Assembly (NCBI GenBank): GCA_026391805.1
Contig: JAPLDJ010000024.1
Coordinates: 170,014-234,013 of the forward strand
Source of the DNA: Bacteroidota bacterium
Lineage (GTDB): Bacteria > Bacteroidota > Bacteroidia > Bacteroidales > FEN-979
DNA: 64,000 bases
Reading direction: 5' to 3'
Made by a program: the position numbers and the translations under genes. This document shows positions 15,389 through 52,908 of this stretch, in pieces. The notes below the pieces were generated by a model. The model had not been told where the DNA came from, did no database searches, and was given only the letters and a program-made list of their open reading frames with translations. Every line of letters begins with the position of its first letter. Within the stretch, counting starts at the first letter, position 1.

Positions 15389-15457
15389 GGATGTGGGATA
15401 TGAGATGTGAGATGTGAGATGTGAAATGTGAAATGTGAGATCTGAGATCTGAGATGA
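15389..15457. repeat. Drifting 7-bp tandem repeat, about 10 units
   Basis: The units read gggatgt gggatat gagatgt x3 gaaatgt x2 gagatct x2 gagatga. They begin right after the stop codon at 15386-15388, in a convergent intergenic spacer. Confidence 0.9.
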
Positions 15458-21482: not shown

Positions 21483-23006
21483 TTATTCAAGGCTTCCCAC
21501 AACTTTTTCAACCTCGTTGAGGATCTCGCAGGATTTTACAAGTTCTTTCATGGCGTTATGGTCGGGATAAAGCGGCCGGTCAACCTCAAGGAAGGCGACA
21601 TACTTACGGATGATTTCACGTGCCTTGTTTACACCTGCACCGAATGTATACTCCCTGAAATCGAGGGCCTGTGCGGCGGCCATGAGTTCAATGCCGAGAA
21701 TGCCATAGGCATTATCGAGGATCTGGAAGTTCTTCAGGGCGGTGTTCATCCCCATGGAGACAAAATCTTCCTGGTCGGCTGCAGCCGGGATCGACTGAAT
21801 TGAGGCCGGCATTGAAAGGATACGCTGCTCGACGATCTGCATATCGGCCGTATATTGGCTCAGCATCAGTCCGCTGAACATGCCGGCACCCTTCGTAAGG
21901 AAAGCAGGCAAGCCTACGCTGAGGGCAGGGTTGTTCAGCCGGTTCATTCTCCGTTCCGACATTACGCTGACCATGGTAACTACCATTCCTGCCATGTCCA
22001 TCGGCACAGAAACCGGAGATCCCTGGAAGTTGGCCCCGGAAATCTGAAGGTTCTCTTCCGGGAAAAAGATCGGATTATCCCCGACACCGTTCAATTCGAT
22101 CTCCACCTGCGAGCGCGCATAGGCAAGCGCATCATGGGCGGCGCCGATCACCTGCGGGGTCGAACGCATCGAATAGGCATCCTGCACCTTGCATTTTACT
22201 TTTCGCTCTTCAAGATCTCCTCCTTTCACACACTTCATGATGGAGGCTGCACTGCGCACGGCTCCCCTGAATCCGCGGACCTCATGCAATTTCGGAAGGT
22301 AGGGACGCATGTTGGCTTTCATGGCTTCCAGTGACATGGCTGCCGCAATCTCTGCCTGTTTCATCCAGTTGTTTGCATCATACAGGAAAAGGGCGCTCAT
22401 GGCCGTCAGGACGTTCGAACCGTTGATGGTCGCAAGTCCGTCGCGGGCCATCAGCCCCGGAACCGGGATACCTGCAAGATCAAGGGCTTCTTTCCCCGTG
22501 TATCTTTTACCCTTGTAGTAAGCCTCTCCTTCTCCCATCATCAGCAGGGCGATCTGCGACATTGGCGCAAGGTCGCCGCAGGCGCCAACAGATCCTTTCT
22601 GGCAAACAACCGGCGTTACACCCTTGTTGAGCATCTCCACAAGCGTCTGCGTGATCTCCAGGCGGGAACCTGAATTTCCGTGTGCATGAACATTAATACG
22701 GCCAAGCATGGCGCCGCGCACCCAGTCGATGGGCATCGGATCGCCGATCCCGGCGGCATGGTTATAAATAAGGTACTTCTGAAAATCCTTTACCTGGTCG
22801 TCGTTGAGCACCACCTCCGAGAACTCACCGATACCGGTGTTCACCCCGTACATGATCTCATGCGCTTCGATTTTCCTTTCAAGCATCGCACGGCACTTGT
22901 TGATCCGCTCAACGGCCTGCGGGTCGAGTTCGACCTTTTCATTTCCGCGGGCGACGCGTACAACATCTTCGATGGTCAGTCCCGCTCCTTTAATAATAAG
23001 TGTCAT
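21483..23006 (-). CDS. hutH: Histidine ammonia-lyase family (MIO-dependent aromatic amino-acid lyase) with an Ala-Cys-Gly triad
   Basis: 507-aa ORF with lyase-family motifs: YGVNTGIGEF, NHAAGIG, GSVGACGDLAPMS, NGSNV, QDAYSMR, and DQEDFVSMG near the C-terminus. Confidence 0.85.
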   Translation of the reverse strand: MTLIIKGAGLTIEDVVRVARGNEKVELDPQAVERINKCRAMLERKIEAHEIMYGVNTGIGEFSEVVLNDDQVKDFQKYLIYNHAAGIGDPMPIDWVRGAMLGRINVHAHGNSGSRLEITQTLVEMLNKGVTPVVCQKGSVGACGDLAPMSQIALLMMGEGEAYYKGKRYTGKEALDLAGIPVPGLMARDGLATINGSNVLTAMSALFLYDANNWMKQAEIAAAMSLEAMKANMRPYLPKLHEVRGFRGAVRSAASIMKCVKGGDLEERKVKCKVQDAYSMRSTPQVIGAAHDALAYARSQVEIELNGVGDNPIFFPEENLQISGANFQGSPVSVPMDMAGMVVTMVSVMSERRMNRLNNPALSVGLPAFLTKGAGMFSGLMLSQYTADMQIVEQRILSMPASIQSIPAAADQEDFVSMGMNTALKNFQILDNAYGILGIELMAAAQALDFREYTFGAGVNKAREIIRKYVAFLEVDRPLYPDHNAMKELVKSCEILNEVEKVVGSLE

Positions 23007-23073: not shown

Positions 23074-24537
23074 TCAGCGAACGAGCCCTATCAACCCTTC
23101 AGCCGATACCTCCTTCTGTTCTCCCGTATTCATATCTTTCAGTGTCAGCAAACCCGAGTTCATCTCTTTTTCGCCGGCAAGCACCACGTATGGGATGTTT
23201 TTTTTGTTGGCATAATCCAGTTGCTTTTTCAGTTTGGCAGCTTCCGGGTAGATCTCGGCCGGAATGCCTGATCGCCGTACTTTTGCCAGCACCGGAAGAC
23301 AATATTTTTCTTCTTTTTCCCCGAAATTAATAAAGAGGACTTTTGTTGTGGACTGGATGGTTTCCGGGAAAAGGTTCAGTTCATTCATTACATCATAGAT
23401 CCGGTCGGCTCCGAAGGAGATACCGACGCCCGAAACACCCTTCAGTCCAAAGATCCCGGTAAGGTCATCGTACCTGCCACCGCCGCAGATGCTGCCGATC
23501 GGGACATCCTTCGCCTTTACCTCGATGATGGTGCCGGTGTAGTAATTCAGTCCGCGGGCCAGTGAAATGTCGAACTCAACAGAATCTGTCAGGCTAAGAT
23601 CGTTCAGATAGGCATAAATCATTCCCATTTCACCGATGCCTTTCATCCCAATTTGTGAACCGGAAAGATTTTCCTTCAGGAAGGGGAGTATTATGTTGAT
23701 ATGAGTTTCTGATGCAAAATTGAGGAAGGGCAGCAGCGATTCAATCGCATGTTCAGTAAATCCCTTCTGGCGCAATTCGTTCATAACAGCATCAAATCCT
23801 GCTTTATCGATTTTGTCGAGCGAGATGGTCAGATCGGTTAACCGGTTGGGTTCACCGATAACTTCTGCAATACCGGCAAGGATCTTCCGGTTGTTCAGCT
23901 TAACCGTAAAGCCCACGCCCAGTTCTTTAAAAATGGCGCCGATGATCTGAACCAGTTCAACTTCGTTCAGCAGTGAATCGCTTCCGATCACATCCACATC
24001 ACACTGAAAGAACTCGCGGTAACGGCCTTTCTGCGGGCGGTCGGCCCTCCAGACAGGCTGGATCTGATATCGTTTAAATGGAAAGGTGATCTCATTCTGA
24101 TGCTGCACCACAAACCGCGCAAACGGAACCGTCAGATCATACCGCAATCCCTTCTCGGCAATAAACGGCAAAAGTTTCCGGTAATCCATCAAACCCTCTT
24201 CCTCCGCCTTCAGACCTCCGCCCTCCGACCTTTGTCCTCCATCCTCCATCCTCAATTCTCCATCCTCCGACCTCAGACCTCCGCCCTCCGGCTTCGCTTT
24301 ACTGACCCCGTCAAGAAAATTCCCCGAATTAAGGATTCTGAACAGAAGTTTGTCGCCCTCTTCACCATATTTCCCAAGCAATGTAGAAAGATTTTCCATC
24401 GCCGGGGTTTCGATCGGGAGGTAGCCGTATAGCTGGAATACCCTCCGGATGGTGTCGAAAATGAAATTCCTTTTCACCATTTCATCCGGAGAAAAATCAC
24501 GGGTACCTTTGGGAATGGAAGGTTTCTGGACTGACAT
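23074..24537 (-). CDS. hisS: Histidine--tRNA ligase with a repeat-encoded internal insertion
   Basis: 487-aa ORF with class II HisRS motifs: [46 protein letters not shown] and GGGRYDDL, plus a C-terminal anticodon-binding domain. Confidence 0.92.
24192..24292 (-). repeat. In-frame 21-bp (3 x 7 bp) tandem repeat inside hisS, about 5 units
   Basis: The coding strand reads ggagggcggaggtctgaggtc ggaggatggagaattgaggat ggaggatggaggacaaaggtc ggagggcggaggtctgaaggc ggaggaagagggtttgatgga. This encodes [35 protein letters not shown]. Confidence 0.85.
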
Positions 24538-24595: not shown

Positions 24596-26275
24596 TCAGT
24601 CAGCCTTCAGCTTCTTGTATTTGATCCTGTGGGGTTCTTCATCCCCAAGCCGTTTCTTCCGGTTCTCTTCATATTCGGAATATCCGCCTTCAAAGAAATA
24701 GACCTGCGAATCACCTTCAAAGGCCAGGATATGCGTTGCCACACGGTCAAGGAACCAGCGGTCGTGCGAGATGATGACCGCGCAGCCTGCAAAGCTTTCG
24801 AGACCTTCTTCCAGCGCCCGTAAGGTATTTACGTCGATGTCGTTGGTCGGTTCGTCGAGTAGTAGCACATTGGCTTCTTCTTTCAGGGTCAGTGCCAGGT
24901 GAAGCCGGTTTCGCTCCCCGCCCGAGAGCACCCCGCATTTCTTTTCCTGGTCGGCGCCGGTAAAATTGAACCTGGCCACGTACGCCCGGGCATTCATGGA
25001 TCGTCCGCCGAGCAGTATCACTTCGCTGTTGTCTGAAATGACCTGGTAAACCGATTTTTCAGGGTCGATGGCGGTATGGCTCTGGTCTACGTAACCGATC
25101 TTCACAGTTTCGCCGACGTTGAACGACCCGGAATCCGGTTTTTCCGATCCGATGATCAGCCTGAAGAGGGTTGTTTTTCCTGCTCCGTTAGGACCGATAA
25201 TTCCAACGATCCCGGCCGGAGGAAGAGAAAATTCAAGGTTTTCAAAAAGAAGTTGTTCCCCAAATGATTTTGACACTGATAATGCATCGATCACCTTGTT
25301 TCCCAGCCGCGGGCCATTCGGGATGTACAGTTCAAGCCGGTCTTCCTTCTGTTTGACATCTTCGTTCAGCAACCGCTCATAGTTGGCCAGCCTCGCTTTT
25401 CCTTTTGCCTGGCGGGCTTTGGGCGACATTCTGACCCATTCGAGTTCCCGCTCCAGGGTTTTACGGCGCTTGCTTTCCGATTTTTCCTCCATCGCGAGCC
25501 GGTTCGATTTCTGCTCCAGCCAGGAGGAGTAATTTCCCTGCCAGGGAATGCCTTCCCCGCGGTCCAGTTCCAGGATCCAGCCTGCAACATTATCGAGGAA
25601 ATAGCGGTCGTGGGTGATTGCGATCACCGTGCCCTTGTATTGCTGGAGGTGTTGCTCCAGCCATTGAACCGATTCAGCATCAAGGTGGTTGGTAGGCTCG
25701 TCAAGCAGCAGGATATCCGGCTCTTTCAGCAGGAGGCGGCACAGTGCGACCCTTCTTTTTTCTCCTCCCGAGAGGACATCCACCGGCCGGTCGCCTTCCG
25801 GGCAGCGCAGGGCATCCATGGCCCGTTGCAGCCGGCTGTCGAGATCCCATGCATTGTGATGATCGAGCAGCTCGGTCAGTTCACCCTGCCGCTGGATCAG
25901 CTTATCCATCTCTTCATCGGTAATCGGTTCCCCGAACCGGGCATTCACCTGCTCATACTCCTGCAGCAGGTCAACCACTTCCTGAACTCCTTCTTTTACA
26001 ATTTCTATCACCGTCTTGGTCTCATCCACCAGCGGATCCTGTTCCAGCATGCCGATGCTGTATCCGGGAGAAAAGACAACGTCGCCCTGGAAGGATTTTT
26101 CCGTACCGGCGATGATCTTCAGCAAGGTCGATTTTCCCGATCCGTTAAGGCCGATGATCCCGATCTTGGCGCCATAAAAAAAGGAAAGATAGATGTCTTT
26201 TAATACCTGCTTGTGGGGCGGGAATGTCTTGCTGACATTCACCATCGAAAAAATGATCTTCCTGTCGTCAGCCAT
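24596..26275 (-). CDS. ettA: ABC-F ATPase, energy-dependent translational throttle EttA-like
   Basis: 559-aa ORF with two ABC cassettes: GLNGSGKST / LSGGEKRRV / LLLDEPTNHLD and GPNGAGKTT / LSGGERNRL / LLLDEPTNDID. No TM domain. Length and N-terminus are typical of EttA. Confidence 0.88.
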   Translation of the reverse strand: MADDRKIIFSMVNVSKTFPPHKQVLKDIYLSFFYGAKIGIIGLNGSGKSTLLKIIAGTEKSFQGDVVFSPGYSIGMLEQDPLVDETKTVIEIVKEGVQEVVDLLQEYEQVNARFGEPITDEEMDKLIQRQGELTELLDHHNAWDLDSRLQRAMDALRCPEGDRPVDVLSGGEKRRVALCRLLLKEPDILLLDEPTNHLDAESVQWLEQHLQQYKGTVIAITHDRYFLDNVAGWILELDRGEGIPWQGNYSSWLEQKSNRLAMEEKSESKRRKTLERELEWVRMSPKARQAKGKARLANYERLLNEDVKQKEDRLELYIPNGPRLGNKVIDALSVSKSFGEQLLFENLEFSLPPAGIVGIIGPNGAGKTTLFRLIIGSEKPDSGSFNVGETVKIGYVDQSHTAIDPEKSVYQVISDNSEVILLGGRSMNARAYVARFNFTGADQEKKCGVLSGGERNRLHLALTLKEEANVLLLDEPTNDIDVNTLRALEEGLESFAGCAVIISHDRWFLDRVATHILAFEGDSQVYFFEGGYSEYEENRKKRLGDEEPHRIKYKKLKAD

Positions 26276-26283
26276 AAATTATC

Positions 26284-26323
26284 AAATGGTAAAATGGTAA
26301 GATTGTAAAATTGTAATATTGGA
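26284..26323. repeat. Drifting 8-bp tandem repeat, 5 units
   Basis: The units read aaatggta aaatggta agattgta aaattgta atattgga. They lie between the ettA start and the stop of the glycosyltransferase gene. Confidence 0.8.
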
Positions 26324-30174: not shown

Positions 30175-30261
30175 AGAAAGGAGGATGACCGTTACAAAAA
30201 TAGCTATTCTTTTTAACGCGACTTTAATTATTGTATTTTTGCCATTTGCCGGAAATCTGAG

Positions 30262-30317
30262 GTCGGAGGTCGGAAGACTGAAGACTGAAGACTGAGGATG
30301 GAGAATGGAAGATGGAA
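30262..30317. repeat. Drifting 7-bp tandem repeat, 8 units
   Basis: The units read gtcggag gtcggaa gactgaa gactgaa gactgag gatggag aatggaa gatggaa. They lie in a divergent intergenic region and share words with the hisS insertion and the 44704 repeat. Confidence 0.9.
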
Positions 30318-30322
30318 AAATT

Positions 30323-30363
30323 TTCTGTGACTAATCCGTGTTAATCTGTGAAAATCTGTGGTG
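30323..30363. repeat. 10-bp tandem repeat, about 4 units
   Basis: The sequence reads ttctgtgac taatccgtgt taatctgtga aaatctgtgg, directly after the 7-bp repeat and 34 nt before the ATG at 30397. Confidence 0.7.
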
Positions 30364-30396
30364 AATAATAAATAGCGAAAGGCGAAAAAAGAGTTC

Positions 30397-37744: not shown

Positions 37745-37817
37745 TAAATAACGAAAGATAATCGAAGGATAAACGTAAGATAAACGTAAGATAAACGTAA
37801 GATAAAAAAACGTAAAG
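37745..37817. repeat. 11-bp tandem repeat, about 6 units (3 perfect)
   Basis: The units read ataaataacgaaag ataatcgaagg ataaacgtaag x3 ataaaaaaacgtaaag. They end about 45 nt upstream of the paralog-4 -7 box. Confidence 0.85.
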
Positions 37818-44703: not shown

Positions 44704-44801
44704 CTGAGGGCCGAAGTCCGATGTCAGAGGACTGAAGACAGAGGATGGAAGATGGAGGATAGACATTAATTACGTATGTCTTATGACATATGACATATGA
44801 C
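44704..44801. repeat. Drifting 7-bp tandem repeat, about 14 units, inside the ccmB-ccmC spacer
   Basis: The units read ctgaggg ccgaagt ccgatgt cagagga ctgaaga cagagga tggaaga tggagga tagacat taattac gtatgtc ttatgac atatgac atatgac. Confidence 0.8.
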
Positions 44802-46075: not shown

Positions 46076-46096
46076 TCTGGATCCTGGATCCTGGAT
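46076..46096. repeat. 7-bp tandem repeat (tctggat cctggat cctggat)
   Basis: Read directly from the sequence, 9 nt after the ccmE stop. Confidence 0.85.
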
Positions 46097-46145
46097 AATT
46101 TACATACCCGGAGAAGCTTTTTAAACTGATACGAACATTTTTTAT

Positions 46146-46180
46146 CTAGCATCCAGCATCCAGCATCCAGCATCAATCCA
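46146..46180. repeat. 7-bp tandem repeat (ctagcat ccagcat x3 caatcca), near reverse complement of the 46076 block
   Basis: Read as atccagc units, it is the reverse complement of cctggat apart from one base per unit. It ends 12 nt before the ATG at 46192. Confidence 0.85.
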
Positions 46181-52876: not shown

Positions 52877-52904
52877 TTTGACGTATGACGTATGACGTAT
52901 GACG
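52877..52904. repeat. 7-bp tandem repeat (tttgacg tatgacg x3)
   Basis: Read directly in the convergent spacer. It shares the tatgac word with the 44781-44801 block. Confidence 0.85.
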
Positions 52905-52908
52905 TTTT

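Follow-up and report, generated by a model that had tools for sequence, protein, structure and literature searches.

An in-frame heptanucleotide repeat array in the hisS gene of a Bacteroidales metagenome-assembled genome

An array of fifteen heptamers inside hisS

We analyzed a 64,000-nt stretch of DNA (the window) from a 3.89 Mb, 98% complete genome of a Bacteroidales lineage of metagenome-assembled genomes (MAGs). The window carries hisS, encoding a histidine–tRNA ligase (histidyl-tRNA synthetase, HisRS), and a tandem array of 15 heptamers lies in frame within this gene (Table 1). The hisS product matches the Pfam families tRNA-synt_His (PF13393, E = 3.7e-31) and HGTP_anticodon (PF03129, E = 8.9e-15), its top relative of solved structure is 6nhi (E = 7e-145), and it retains all of the invariant columns (150+) of a 45-sequence HisRS alignment. 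Domains and motif residues both identify the predicted product as a class IIa histidyl-tRNA synthetase, and the encoded enzyme appears intact. A whole-genome search returned this hisS copy alone.

Read 5' to 3' on the coding strand, units 1–8 of the array are GGAGGGC, GGAGGTC, TGAGGTC, GGAGGAT, GGAGAAT, TGAGGAT, GGAGGAT and GGAGGAC, and units 9–15 are AAAGGTC, GGAGGGC, GGAGGTC, TGAAGGC, GGAGGAA, GAGGGTT and TGATGGA. GGAGG fills unit positions 1–5 in 10–14 of the 15 heptamers, and the array is degenerate (72% matches). The heptamers stand head to tail in at least three copies, as in heptanucleotide simple sequence repeats (SSRs). Tandem Repeats Finder (TRF) reports the tract both at period 7 (24200–24290, 13 copies) and at period 21 (24201–24295, 4.5 copies), and self-identity rises from 0.65 at lag 7 through 0.68 at lag 21 to 0.76 at lag 63. 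The basic unit of the array is 7 bp, and 21 bp is 3 × 7. Thus, the initial annotation recognized a real repeat and gave its coding strand and peptide correctly, whereas its five 21-bp units are 15 heptamers, which TRF detects at period 7. The lag-63 signal corresponds to a higher-order block of nine heptamers, and units 1–3 (24269–24289) are nearly the same as units 10–12 (24206–24226). The array spans 105 nt, a multiple of three, and its coding-strand units contain no stop codon in any frame; the hisS frame is preserved, as had been proposed. The translated array is a Gly/Glu/Arg-rich peptide with a period of seven residues, since a 7-nt unit regains codon phase every 21 nt. We regard an open reading frame (ORF) of 110 residues on the opposite strand, across the array (24100–24432, + strand), as an artefact that arises because the repeat lacks stop codons.

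We compared the surrounding loop with its orthologs. The stretch from FKILNSG to LRYDLT is 71 residues long in the window HisRS, against 40 residues in 61 of 107 orthologs of the order and 39 residues in six, which gives a net gain of 31 residues over the 40-residue form. A linker longer than usual had been anticipated, and the gain is close to the difference given there (about 50 against roughly 20 residues). HisRS residues 81–117 align to six residues of the 6nhi chain, and residues 74–129 to about three residues of human HisRS. Judged by these alignments, the hisS segment is an insertion or expansion relative to orthologs, and the loop that it enlarges, between the ILNSG strand and the LRYDLT-containing segment, is already variable. 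The downstream flank had been placed in the motif-2 region; it lies upstream of class-II motif 2, which we take to be residues 163–180, and not inside it. AlphaFold2, run with the 45-sequence alignment, predicted residues 80–117 as coil with a predicted local distance difference test (pLDDT) score of 26–39, and the insert is probably disordered. The tolerance of insertions and deletions, the join of about three residues in human HisRS and the coil prediction at pLDDT < 50 together suggest that the insert sits in a surface loop.

Table 1 Genes, heptamer arrays and PF05635 cassettes. Unprefixed positions are those of the window; prefixed positions are those of the same genome.
Feature	Position	Strand	Details
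hisS (histidine--tRNA ligase, 487 aa)	23074..24537	-	ORF; PF13393 + PF03129; 6nhi; single genome copy
hisS array, 15 heptamers	24185..24289	-	Consensus GGAGGNY; encodes residues about 83-118
Higher-order block of 63 nt in hisS array	24227..24289	-	9 heptamers, 21 codons; lag-63 identity 0.76
Intergenic heptamer array	15390..15456	.	GATGTGA x9.6; Tandem Repeats Finder
Intergenic compound array of hisS family	30255..30318	+	GAGGTCG x2, GAAGACT x3, GAGGATG, GAGAATG, GAAGATG
TCTGTG-type 10-bp repeats	30324-30360		After the 30255..30318 array
Intergenic array of related units	44715..44762	+	CAGAGGA CTGAAGA CAGAGGA TGGAAGA TGGAGGA
TATGACA x3	44782-44801		After the 44715..44762 array
Further heptamer array	46077-46096		
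Further heptamer array	46144-46174		ATCCAGC
Further heptamer array	52879-52905		TGACGTA
PF05635 gene	C13:41636-41953		Cassette C13:41516-42091; arms GAGGTC-type / GACCTCC; hisS unit family
PF05635 gene	C7:356-679		Cassette C7:278-829; arms GATGCTG / CATCCAG x8.6; commonest genome unit
PF05635 gene	C12:274192-274485		Cassette C12:274059-274560; arms AAAAGCG / TTTCGCT; second commonest unit
PF05635 gene	C6:114810-115133		Cassette C6:114638-115296; arms CGATGGG / ATCGCCC
PF05635 gene	C25:54765-54980		Cassette C25:54408-55176; complex arms CCAAATG / ATTTGGG

Heptamer arrays in the genome and in HisRS orthologs

Arrays of this type are enriched throughout the genome. At TRF scores of at least 50, it holds 162, 74 and 86 arrays of periods 7, 14 and 21, compared to 0, 1 and 3 in shuffled sequence (322 versus 4), and the locally shuffled whole genome gave no period-7 array with a score of at least 40. 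Lag 7 accounts for 195 exact runs of three or more copies, whereas lags 5, 6, 8, 9 and 11 give 0, 3, 38, 17 and 13; the genome-wide excess is specific to period 7, as is characteristic of heptanucleotide SSRs. There are 64 canonical heptamer units, the commonest being AGCATCC (= ATCCAGC, 25 arrays), AAAAGCG (19) and AAATCGT (10). Also in line with that class, the location is mainly intergenic: 273 of 332 heptamer-type arrays (82%) lie outside ORFs of at least 150 residues, that is, in 14% of the genome, and the hisS array is one exception. Spacers between divergent genes are depleted, since they make up 25% of the spacer length but contain 11% of the arrays, and the nearest gene end is a stop codon for 170 arrays and a start codon for 97, at a median distance of 14.5 nt. 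An Rfam scan of the whole window matched no family. Periods 8, 11, 16 and 22 are enriched genome-wide too, far below period 7; the window itself contains an 8-bp unit, AAATTGTA, in 5.8 copies (26276–26321) and an 11-bp unit, AACGTAAGATA, in 5.2 copies (37750–37806).

The GGAGG family, to which the hisS array belongs, is represented in the genome by 60 loci of at least four units. Two 13-mers of hisS recur exactly in the compound array at 30255..30318, CTGAGGTCGGAGG at 30257–30269 (0.08 matches expected by chance) and GAGGATGGAGAAT at 30294–30306, and both cross junctions of different unit variants. The initial annotation had matched hisS words to two spacers. The first match is borne out by these 13-mers; the second, at 44741–44760, has two mismatches and is not significant as 13-mers on its own, the tract being of the same unit family. 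With unit variants and unit-to-unit junctions common to hisS and intergenic arrays, the repeat family does occur inside coding sequence, as suggested at the outset. The order of variants in the family is polar, running from GTC/GAC-type through GAT-type to GGAGAAT in 22 transitions against 3 in reverse (p = 1.6e-4), and a TCTGTG-type tail follows downstream at 16 of the 60 loci compared to 4 upstream, with 0.7 expected. Independent local expansions would not give this polar order together with the tail, so that the family looks as if it had spread from shared copies. Most likely, the hisS array came from a copy that already existed, by entry or by conversion, rather than growing from nothing in place.

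The alternative is that the array grew wholly in place from a chance proto-repeat, its likeness to intergenic arrays reflecting a shared mutational preference for GGAGG-like units. Slippage-type length changes do happen at the hisS locus, unrelated units (GAAGTAC, CCAGCAT, ATCCCGC) fill the same loop in other lineages, so that repeated appearance is possible, and the 64 different canonical units are compatible with local growth. We nevertheless consider in-place origin unlikely, given the two junction-spanning exact 13-mers that hisS has in common with one intergenic array, the strongly polar variant order with its common non-heptamer tail at many loci, and the absence of a proto-repeat from the baseline HisRS loops of relatives.

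In a separate observation, GGAGG-type arrays often lead into TCTGTG(A/T)-type 10-bp repeats, behind which lies a GC-rich hairpin (CCCTGCC.GCCGGCAGGCAGG), as at 30318–30370 in the window and at C2:101991-102040, C12:279698-279740 and C3:30186-30235. The combination of array, tail and hairpin suggests a larger composite intergenic element.

A search of the other coding sequences, which the initial annotation had proposed, revealed further in-frame arrays in argS, mfd, purL, tsaB, a uvrA-like gene, a geranylgeranyl-reductase (GGR)-like oxidoreductase gene and fecR. The argS array, RRSEDGGRRSEDGGWRMEDGE (C2:100351-100413), is of the hisS family and has the same order of variants, GGAGGTC to GGAGGAT to GGAGAAT. 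At least eight congeners have an enlarged loop of arginyl-tRNA synthetase (ArgRS) after YTYARIQSLLRK, encoded there by other heptamers (CCAGCAT units, for instance, give PASSIQH), and this loop is short in other families of the order. In mfd, CAGTCGG is repeated 10.7 times in frame with 94% matches, purL holds three in-frame heptamer arrays, and the GGR-like FAD oxidoreductase gene carries TCCTCAG x11 in frame. The mfd, oxidoreductase, uvrA-like, purL, tsaB and fecR arrays are long and rather pure, and a slip of one or two units in any of them would shift the frame. A second GGAGG-family array stands, inverted, 46 nt upstream of the argS start (C2:101921-101990).

We then placed the loop lengths on a HisRS tree built with the loop masked. 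In one half of the tree (Prolixibacter, Labilibaculum, Mariniphaga, Carboxylicivirga and others) the loop is 39–40 residues long in 52 of 55 proteins. The other half, which includes the window and consists of uncultured Bacteroidales of fens, peat and lakes, has loops of 37–78 residues, and its expanded loops are encoded by DNA with a 7-nt period and varied units (GAAGTAC, CCAGCAT, ATCCCGC, AATTCAA and others). Exact heptamer runs per 100 kb flanking hisS number 7.8 in the window's half and 0.57 in the other half; the window's own genome has 5.0. Among unrelated Bacteroidales we found no homologous segment of the same length free of repeats; those proteins have the 40-residue loop, and expanded loops are limited to the heptamer-rich clade. 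Over 106 HisRS sequences, the state 'loop of at least 44 residues' needs a minimum of 11 changes, and a single gain followed by losses is indistinguishable from several gains on this tree.

The nearest HisRS sequences from a large protein collection are 80–85% identical to the window protein, and three of them (P0001, P0002 and P0004) were read as DNA. Counted from NFL to EK, the loop DNA measures 171 nt in the window, 171 nt in P0004, 150 nt in P0002 and 108 nt in P0001. When anchored at the right flank, the four arrays match heptamer by heptamer, and the closest genes have a common array end, ...GCGGAGG AAGAxxG TTTGATG, followed by GATTAY; P0001 has the same flanks and terminal units as the window. 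Homologous arrays thus exist in these relatives, and the expansion is restricted to one lineage. The lengths differ by 21 nt (exactly 3 heptamers) and by 63 nt (exactly 9), and the 63-nt difference matches the lag-63 self-similarity of the window's array; P0001, the closest ortholog, is without the 63-nt block, with the placement of the indel inside the array ambiguous. Variation in unit number among relatives, a further mark of heptanucleotide SSRs, is therefore present between orthologs. Steps of 3n units are the pattern expected of 7-nt slippage filtered by an essential reading frame, and we infer that the array changes by replication slippage. Within the genus, (ATCCAGC)3 counts range from 0 in five species to 601 in G012 (relatives G001–G040), a patchiness that points to unit families spreading in bursts or horizontally. 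(ATCCAGC)3 also occurs in one genome of another family (G031).

These orthologs also bear on whether the segment is an assembly artefact, either a repeat-induced mis-join or a collapse or expansion of the repeat in a metagenome-derived assembly. Nearly all of the relatives are MAGs, assemblers struggle with short tandem repeats, and obvious internal duplications do occur in database HisRS entries. However, the reading frame and both flanks of hisS are intact, the array (105 nt) is below read length, an independent JGI metagenome contig (P0004) has the same loop length of 171 nt and the same unit order, and related forms come from ENA and JGI contigs as well as from a fen MAG. An artefact is thus extremely improbable. 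The duplicated entries, P0011 (568 residues) and P0092 (517 residues), contain exact internal duplications of conserved segments, which are probably assembly artefacts in metagenome contigs.

We propose, with a probability of about 0.78, that the hisS segment is a passenger, an array of the genome-wide heptanucleotide repeat class that is translated and tolerated within a single and intact hisS. The anatomy of the array and the genome-wide enrichment of its type are direct observations. One of several hundred heptanucleotide arrays would have come to lie in frame in hisS, where its translation would enlarge an already variable loop by a probably disordered peptide. Its persistence would be owed to units that are stop-free in every coding-strand frame, to a length that is a multiple of three and to a loop tolerant of length change. 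The array would evolve by replication slippage and point mutation, and the essential hisS would retain a change in unit number only if it adds or removes 21 nt (three heptamers) or a multiple of this; the 21- and 63-nt higher-order periodicity would follow from this filter. The earlier suggestion that a repeat expansion or insertion is tolerated in an essential synthetase agrees with a protein that is longer than its orthologs, is encoded by the sole hisS and keeps the invariant columns.

Several observations weigh against this proposal. Arrays within ORFs are as pure as intergenic ones (90.3% versus 89.1% matches), and these values give no sign of a general stabilization of coding arrays, which lower purity would indicate. 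The surface loop put forward by the initial annotation holds as an insertion in a variable loop, but its exposure is not directly backed by the AlphaFold2 model, which is poor throughout residues 1–135 at the N-terminus. The HisRS tree collapses within the genus of the window, so that gains and losses are not countable, and the neutrality of the insert is an assumption.

The insert might instead have been recruited for a function and be kept by selection, for example by tethering a partner or RNA through a flexible, charged segment or by regulating the dimerization of HisRS. Its long retention, with homologous arrays in proteins only 80–85% identical, a degeneracy (72% matches) that suggests age, and the occurrence of the same unit family in a second synthetase, ArgRS, would fit such a role. 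We judge this very unlikely, since the closest relative is 21 residues shorter, congeners have a plain 40-residue loop or wholly different peptides, the sequence is of low complexity and predicted to be disordered, and like arrays are found in many unrelated enzymes.

PF05635 genes between inverted heptamer arrays

The passenger reading can be extended to the origin of the arrays by way of PF05635, the 23S rRNA intervening sequence (IVS) protein family. PF05635 proteins are Avd-like four-helix bundles. The genome has six PF05635 genes, four or five of which are flanked on both sides by inverted arrays of a single unit (Table 1), standing within about 40–110 nt of the gene, and the start codon is separated from the arm by a conserved leader (...AAAAAGTAATACG...TTAATCG...). 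A strict 130-nt criterion counts four of the six PF05635 genes as bracketed, and 57 of the 3050 remaining ORFs (Fisher p = 2e-6). Among 12 PF05635 loci of 12 further genomes in the order, 8–9 show such a bracket, every one built from a unit of its own, and in G004 a PF05635 gene lies between ATCCAGC arrays. At hisS, no PF05635 ORF between inverted arrays was found; the array has a single polarity, with no ORF and no second arm.

Heptamer arrays may accordingly be the repeat arms of small selfish PF05635 cassettes, with the hisS insert as a gene-less solo arm or footprint. This would extend the explanation of the hisS segment as a tolerated passenger array and does not exclude it. The inverted same-unit brackets on PF05635 genes, which include the hisS family and the two commonest units of the genome, point in this direction, as do their statistical enrichment, their recurrence elsewhere in the order and the G004 gene between ATCCAGC arrays. 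A parallel is provided by the Coxiella 23S IVS, with its S23p ORF, terminal inverted repeats and strain-variable heptamers (PMC4990558). Against this, the hisS array is of one polarity and lacks a partner arm, hairpin and ORF, same-unit array pairs overall are about evenly direct and inverted, many inverted pairs enclose ordinary genes, and cassettes might insert into arrays or produce them while the solo arrays have another source. To our knowledge, no transposition mechanism, target duplication or enzyme has been described for PF05635 proteins. We regard an origin as cassette arms as possible, with the odds somewhat against it.

A general inversion of same-unit array pairs was considered and rejected, with 36 inverted pairs against 34 direct ones and the tight bracket confined to PF05635 genes. 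Most inverted pairs at 0.7–2.4 kb enclose ordinary genes (dtd, tag, rfbD). Single cases of bracketing by inverted same-unit arrays concern dtd, a YfcE-like phosphoesterase gene, tag and rfbD, with the brackets on ordinary genes at C21:117207-117826, C4:108213-108885, C10:117523-118326 and C12:272037-273088.

A broader form of the proposal, which we hold to be doubtful, is that heptamer arrays are the arms of widespread, unrecognized PF05635 selfish cassettes, each with its own 7-nt 'word', and that gene-less arms spread. If this were true, arm arrays would repeatedly enter the same permissive loops of HisRS, ArgRS, Mfd and PurL, and, both in other phyla and in this Bacteroidales family, would be a major, fast-turnover source of differences in protein length. 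Through the statistical association with PF05635 cassettes, the origin of heptamer arrays becomes open to test.

Comparison with known repeats

The repeat class is already known. Where they treat long SSRs, published accounts describe heptanucleotide repeats as the commonest such class in many bacteria and as under-represented in ORFs (PMC4679880, citing Mrazek 2007; PMC4692102). The examples given there include the cyanobacterial short tandemly repeated repetitive (STRR) sequences, GGGNATC of Xanthomonas and Nostoc, and TAACTGA of Beggiatoaceae, Cyanobacteria and some Bacteroidetes (PMC4679880, PMC4692102). The arrays of the present genome share with bacterial heptanucleotide SSRs their 7-nt tandem units, the hundreds of arrays per genome, the period-7 excess and a copy number that differs between relatives. 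Like the Xanthomonas and Nostoc heptamers (PMC4692102), they are intergenic, few between divergent genes and placed just after stop codons, and like the TAACTGA repeats (PMC4679880) they are patchy among related species. They differ in that 64 units take the place of one favored heptamer, in that variants drift in a fixed polar order, and in that different units fill the same protein loops in related species. Moreover, several arrays stand in frame in the middle of essential genes, whereas the published surveys stress under-representation in ORFs or location at protein termini. The features that set this variant apart are thus the in-frame position in several essential genes, the three-unit steps, the loop hot spots with turnover of units, and the association with PF05635.

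We compared the hisS array to four more narrowly defined systems. The cyanobacterial STRR in the strict sense does not apply, as the host belongs to the Bacteroidales and none of the 45 commonest among the 64 units matches the unit sequences assumed for STRR1–3.

Rickettsia palindromic elements are palindromes of 100–150 nt that are inserted as units. As is proposed for the hisS segment, they are selfish or neutral repeats in frame in housekeeping genes, translated into an extra surface segment with enzyme function kept. The hisS segment differs as a one-polarity tandem array that changes length in 21-nt steps; no hairpin was found in it (RNA fold against shuffles, z = 0.36), nor any inverted repeat in 24100–24400, and a palindromic element of this type was rejected.

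The Coxiella burnetii IVS combines inverted termini with strain-variable tandem heptamers beside an S23p ORF (PMC4990558). PF05635 genes of this genome and its relatives are likewise bracketed by inverted repeats, but these cassettes are free-standing, outside rRNA, and their arms are whole heptamer arrays, and the hisS insert has neither an ORF nor a second arm.

With phase-variable SSR loci, the hisS array shares the slippage of a unit that is not a multiple of three within a reading frame. A phase-variable switch was rejected, since hisS is essential and single-copy, so that an off state would be lethal, the array is impure, and the only differences observed between variants are of 3 and 9 units; the array would be a hazard or passenger and not a switch.

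Heptamer repeats are known but unexplained, and they are usually called intergenic and purged from genes. The hisS array shows that they can persist for long inside single-copy essential genes and lengthen essential proteins without breaking them, where they would evolve in frame-allowed steps (3 units = 21 nt = 7 residues). Particular protein loops are hot spots for differing units in related species, and much of the difference in length between orthologs would here be repeat DNA and not adaptation. This is relevant to MAG annotation, to assembly quality control and to the question of what generates heptamer arrays.

Finally, hisS is flanked by a gene of the PF00221 aromatic/histidine ammonia-lyase family (21483–23006) and by an ABC-F ATPase gene (24596–26275), and the order ammonia-lyase, hisS, ABC-F is kept in the closest metagenome contigs.

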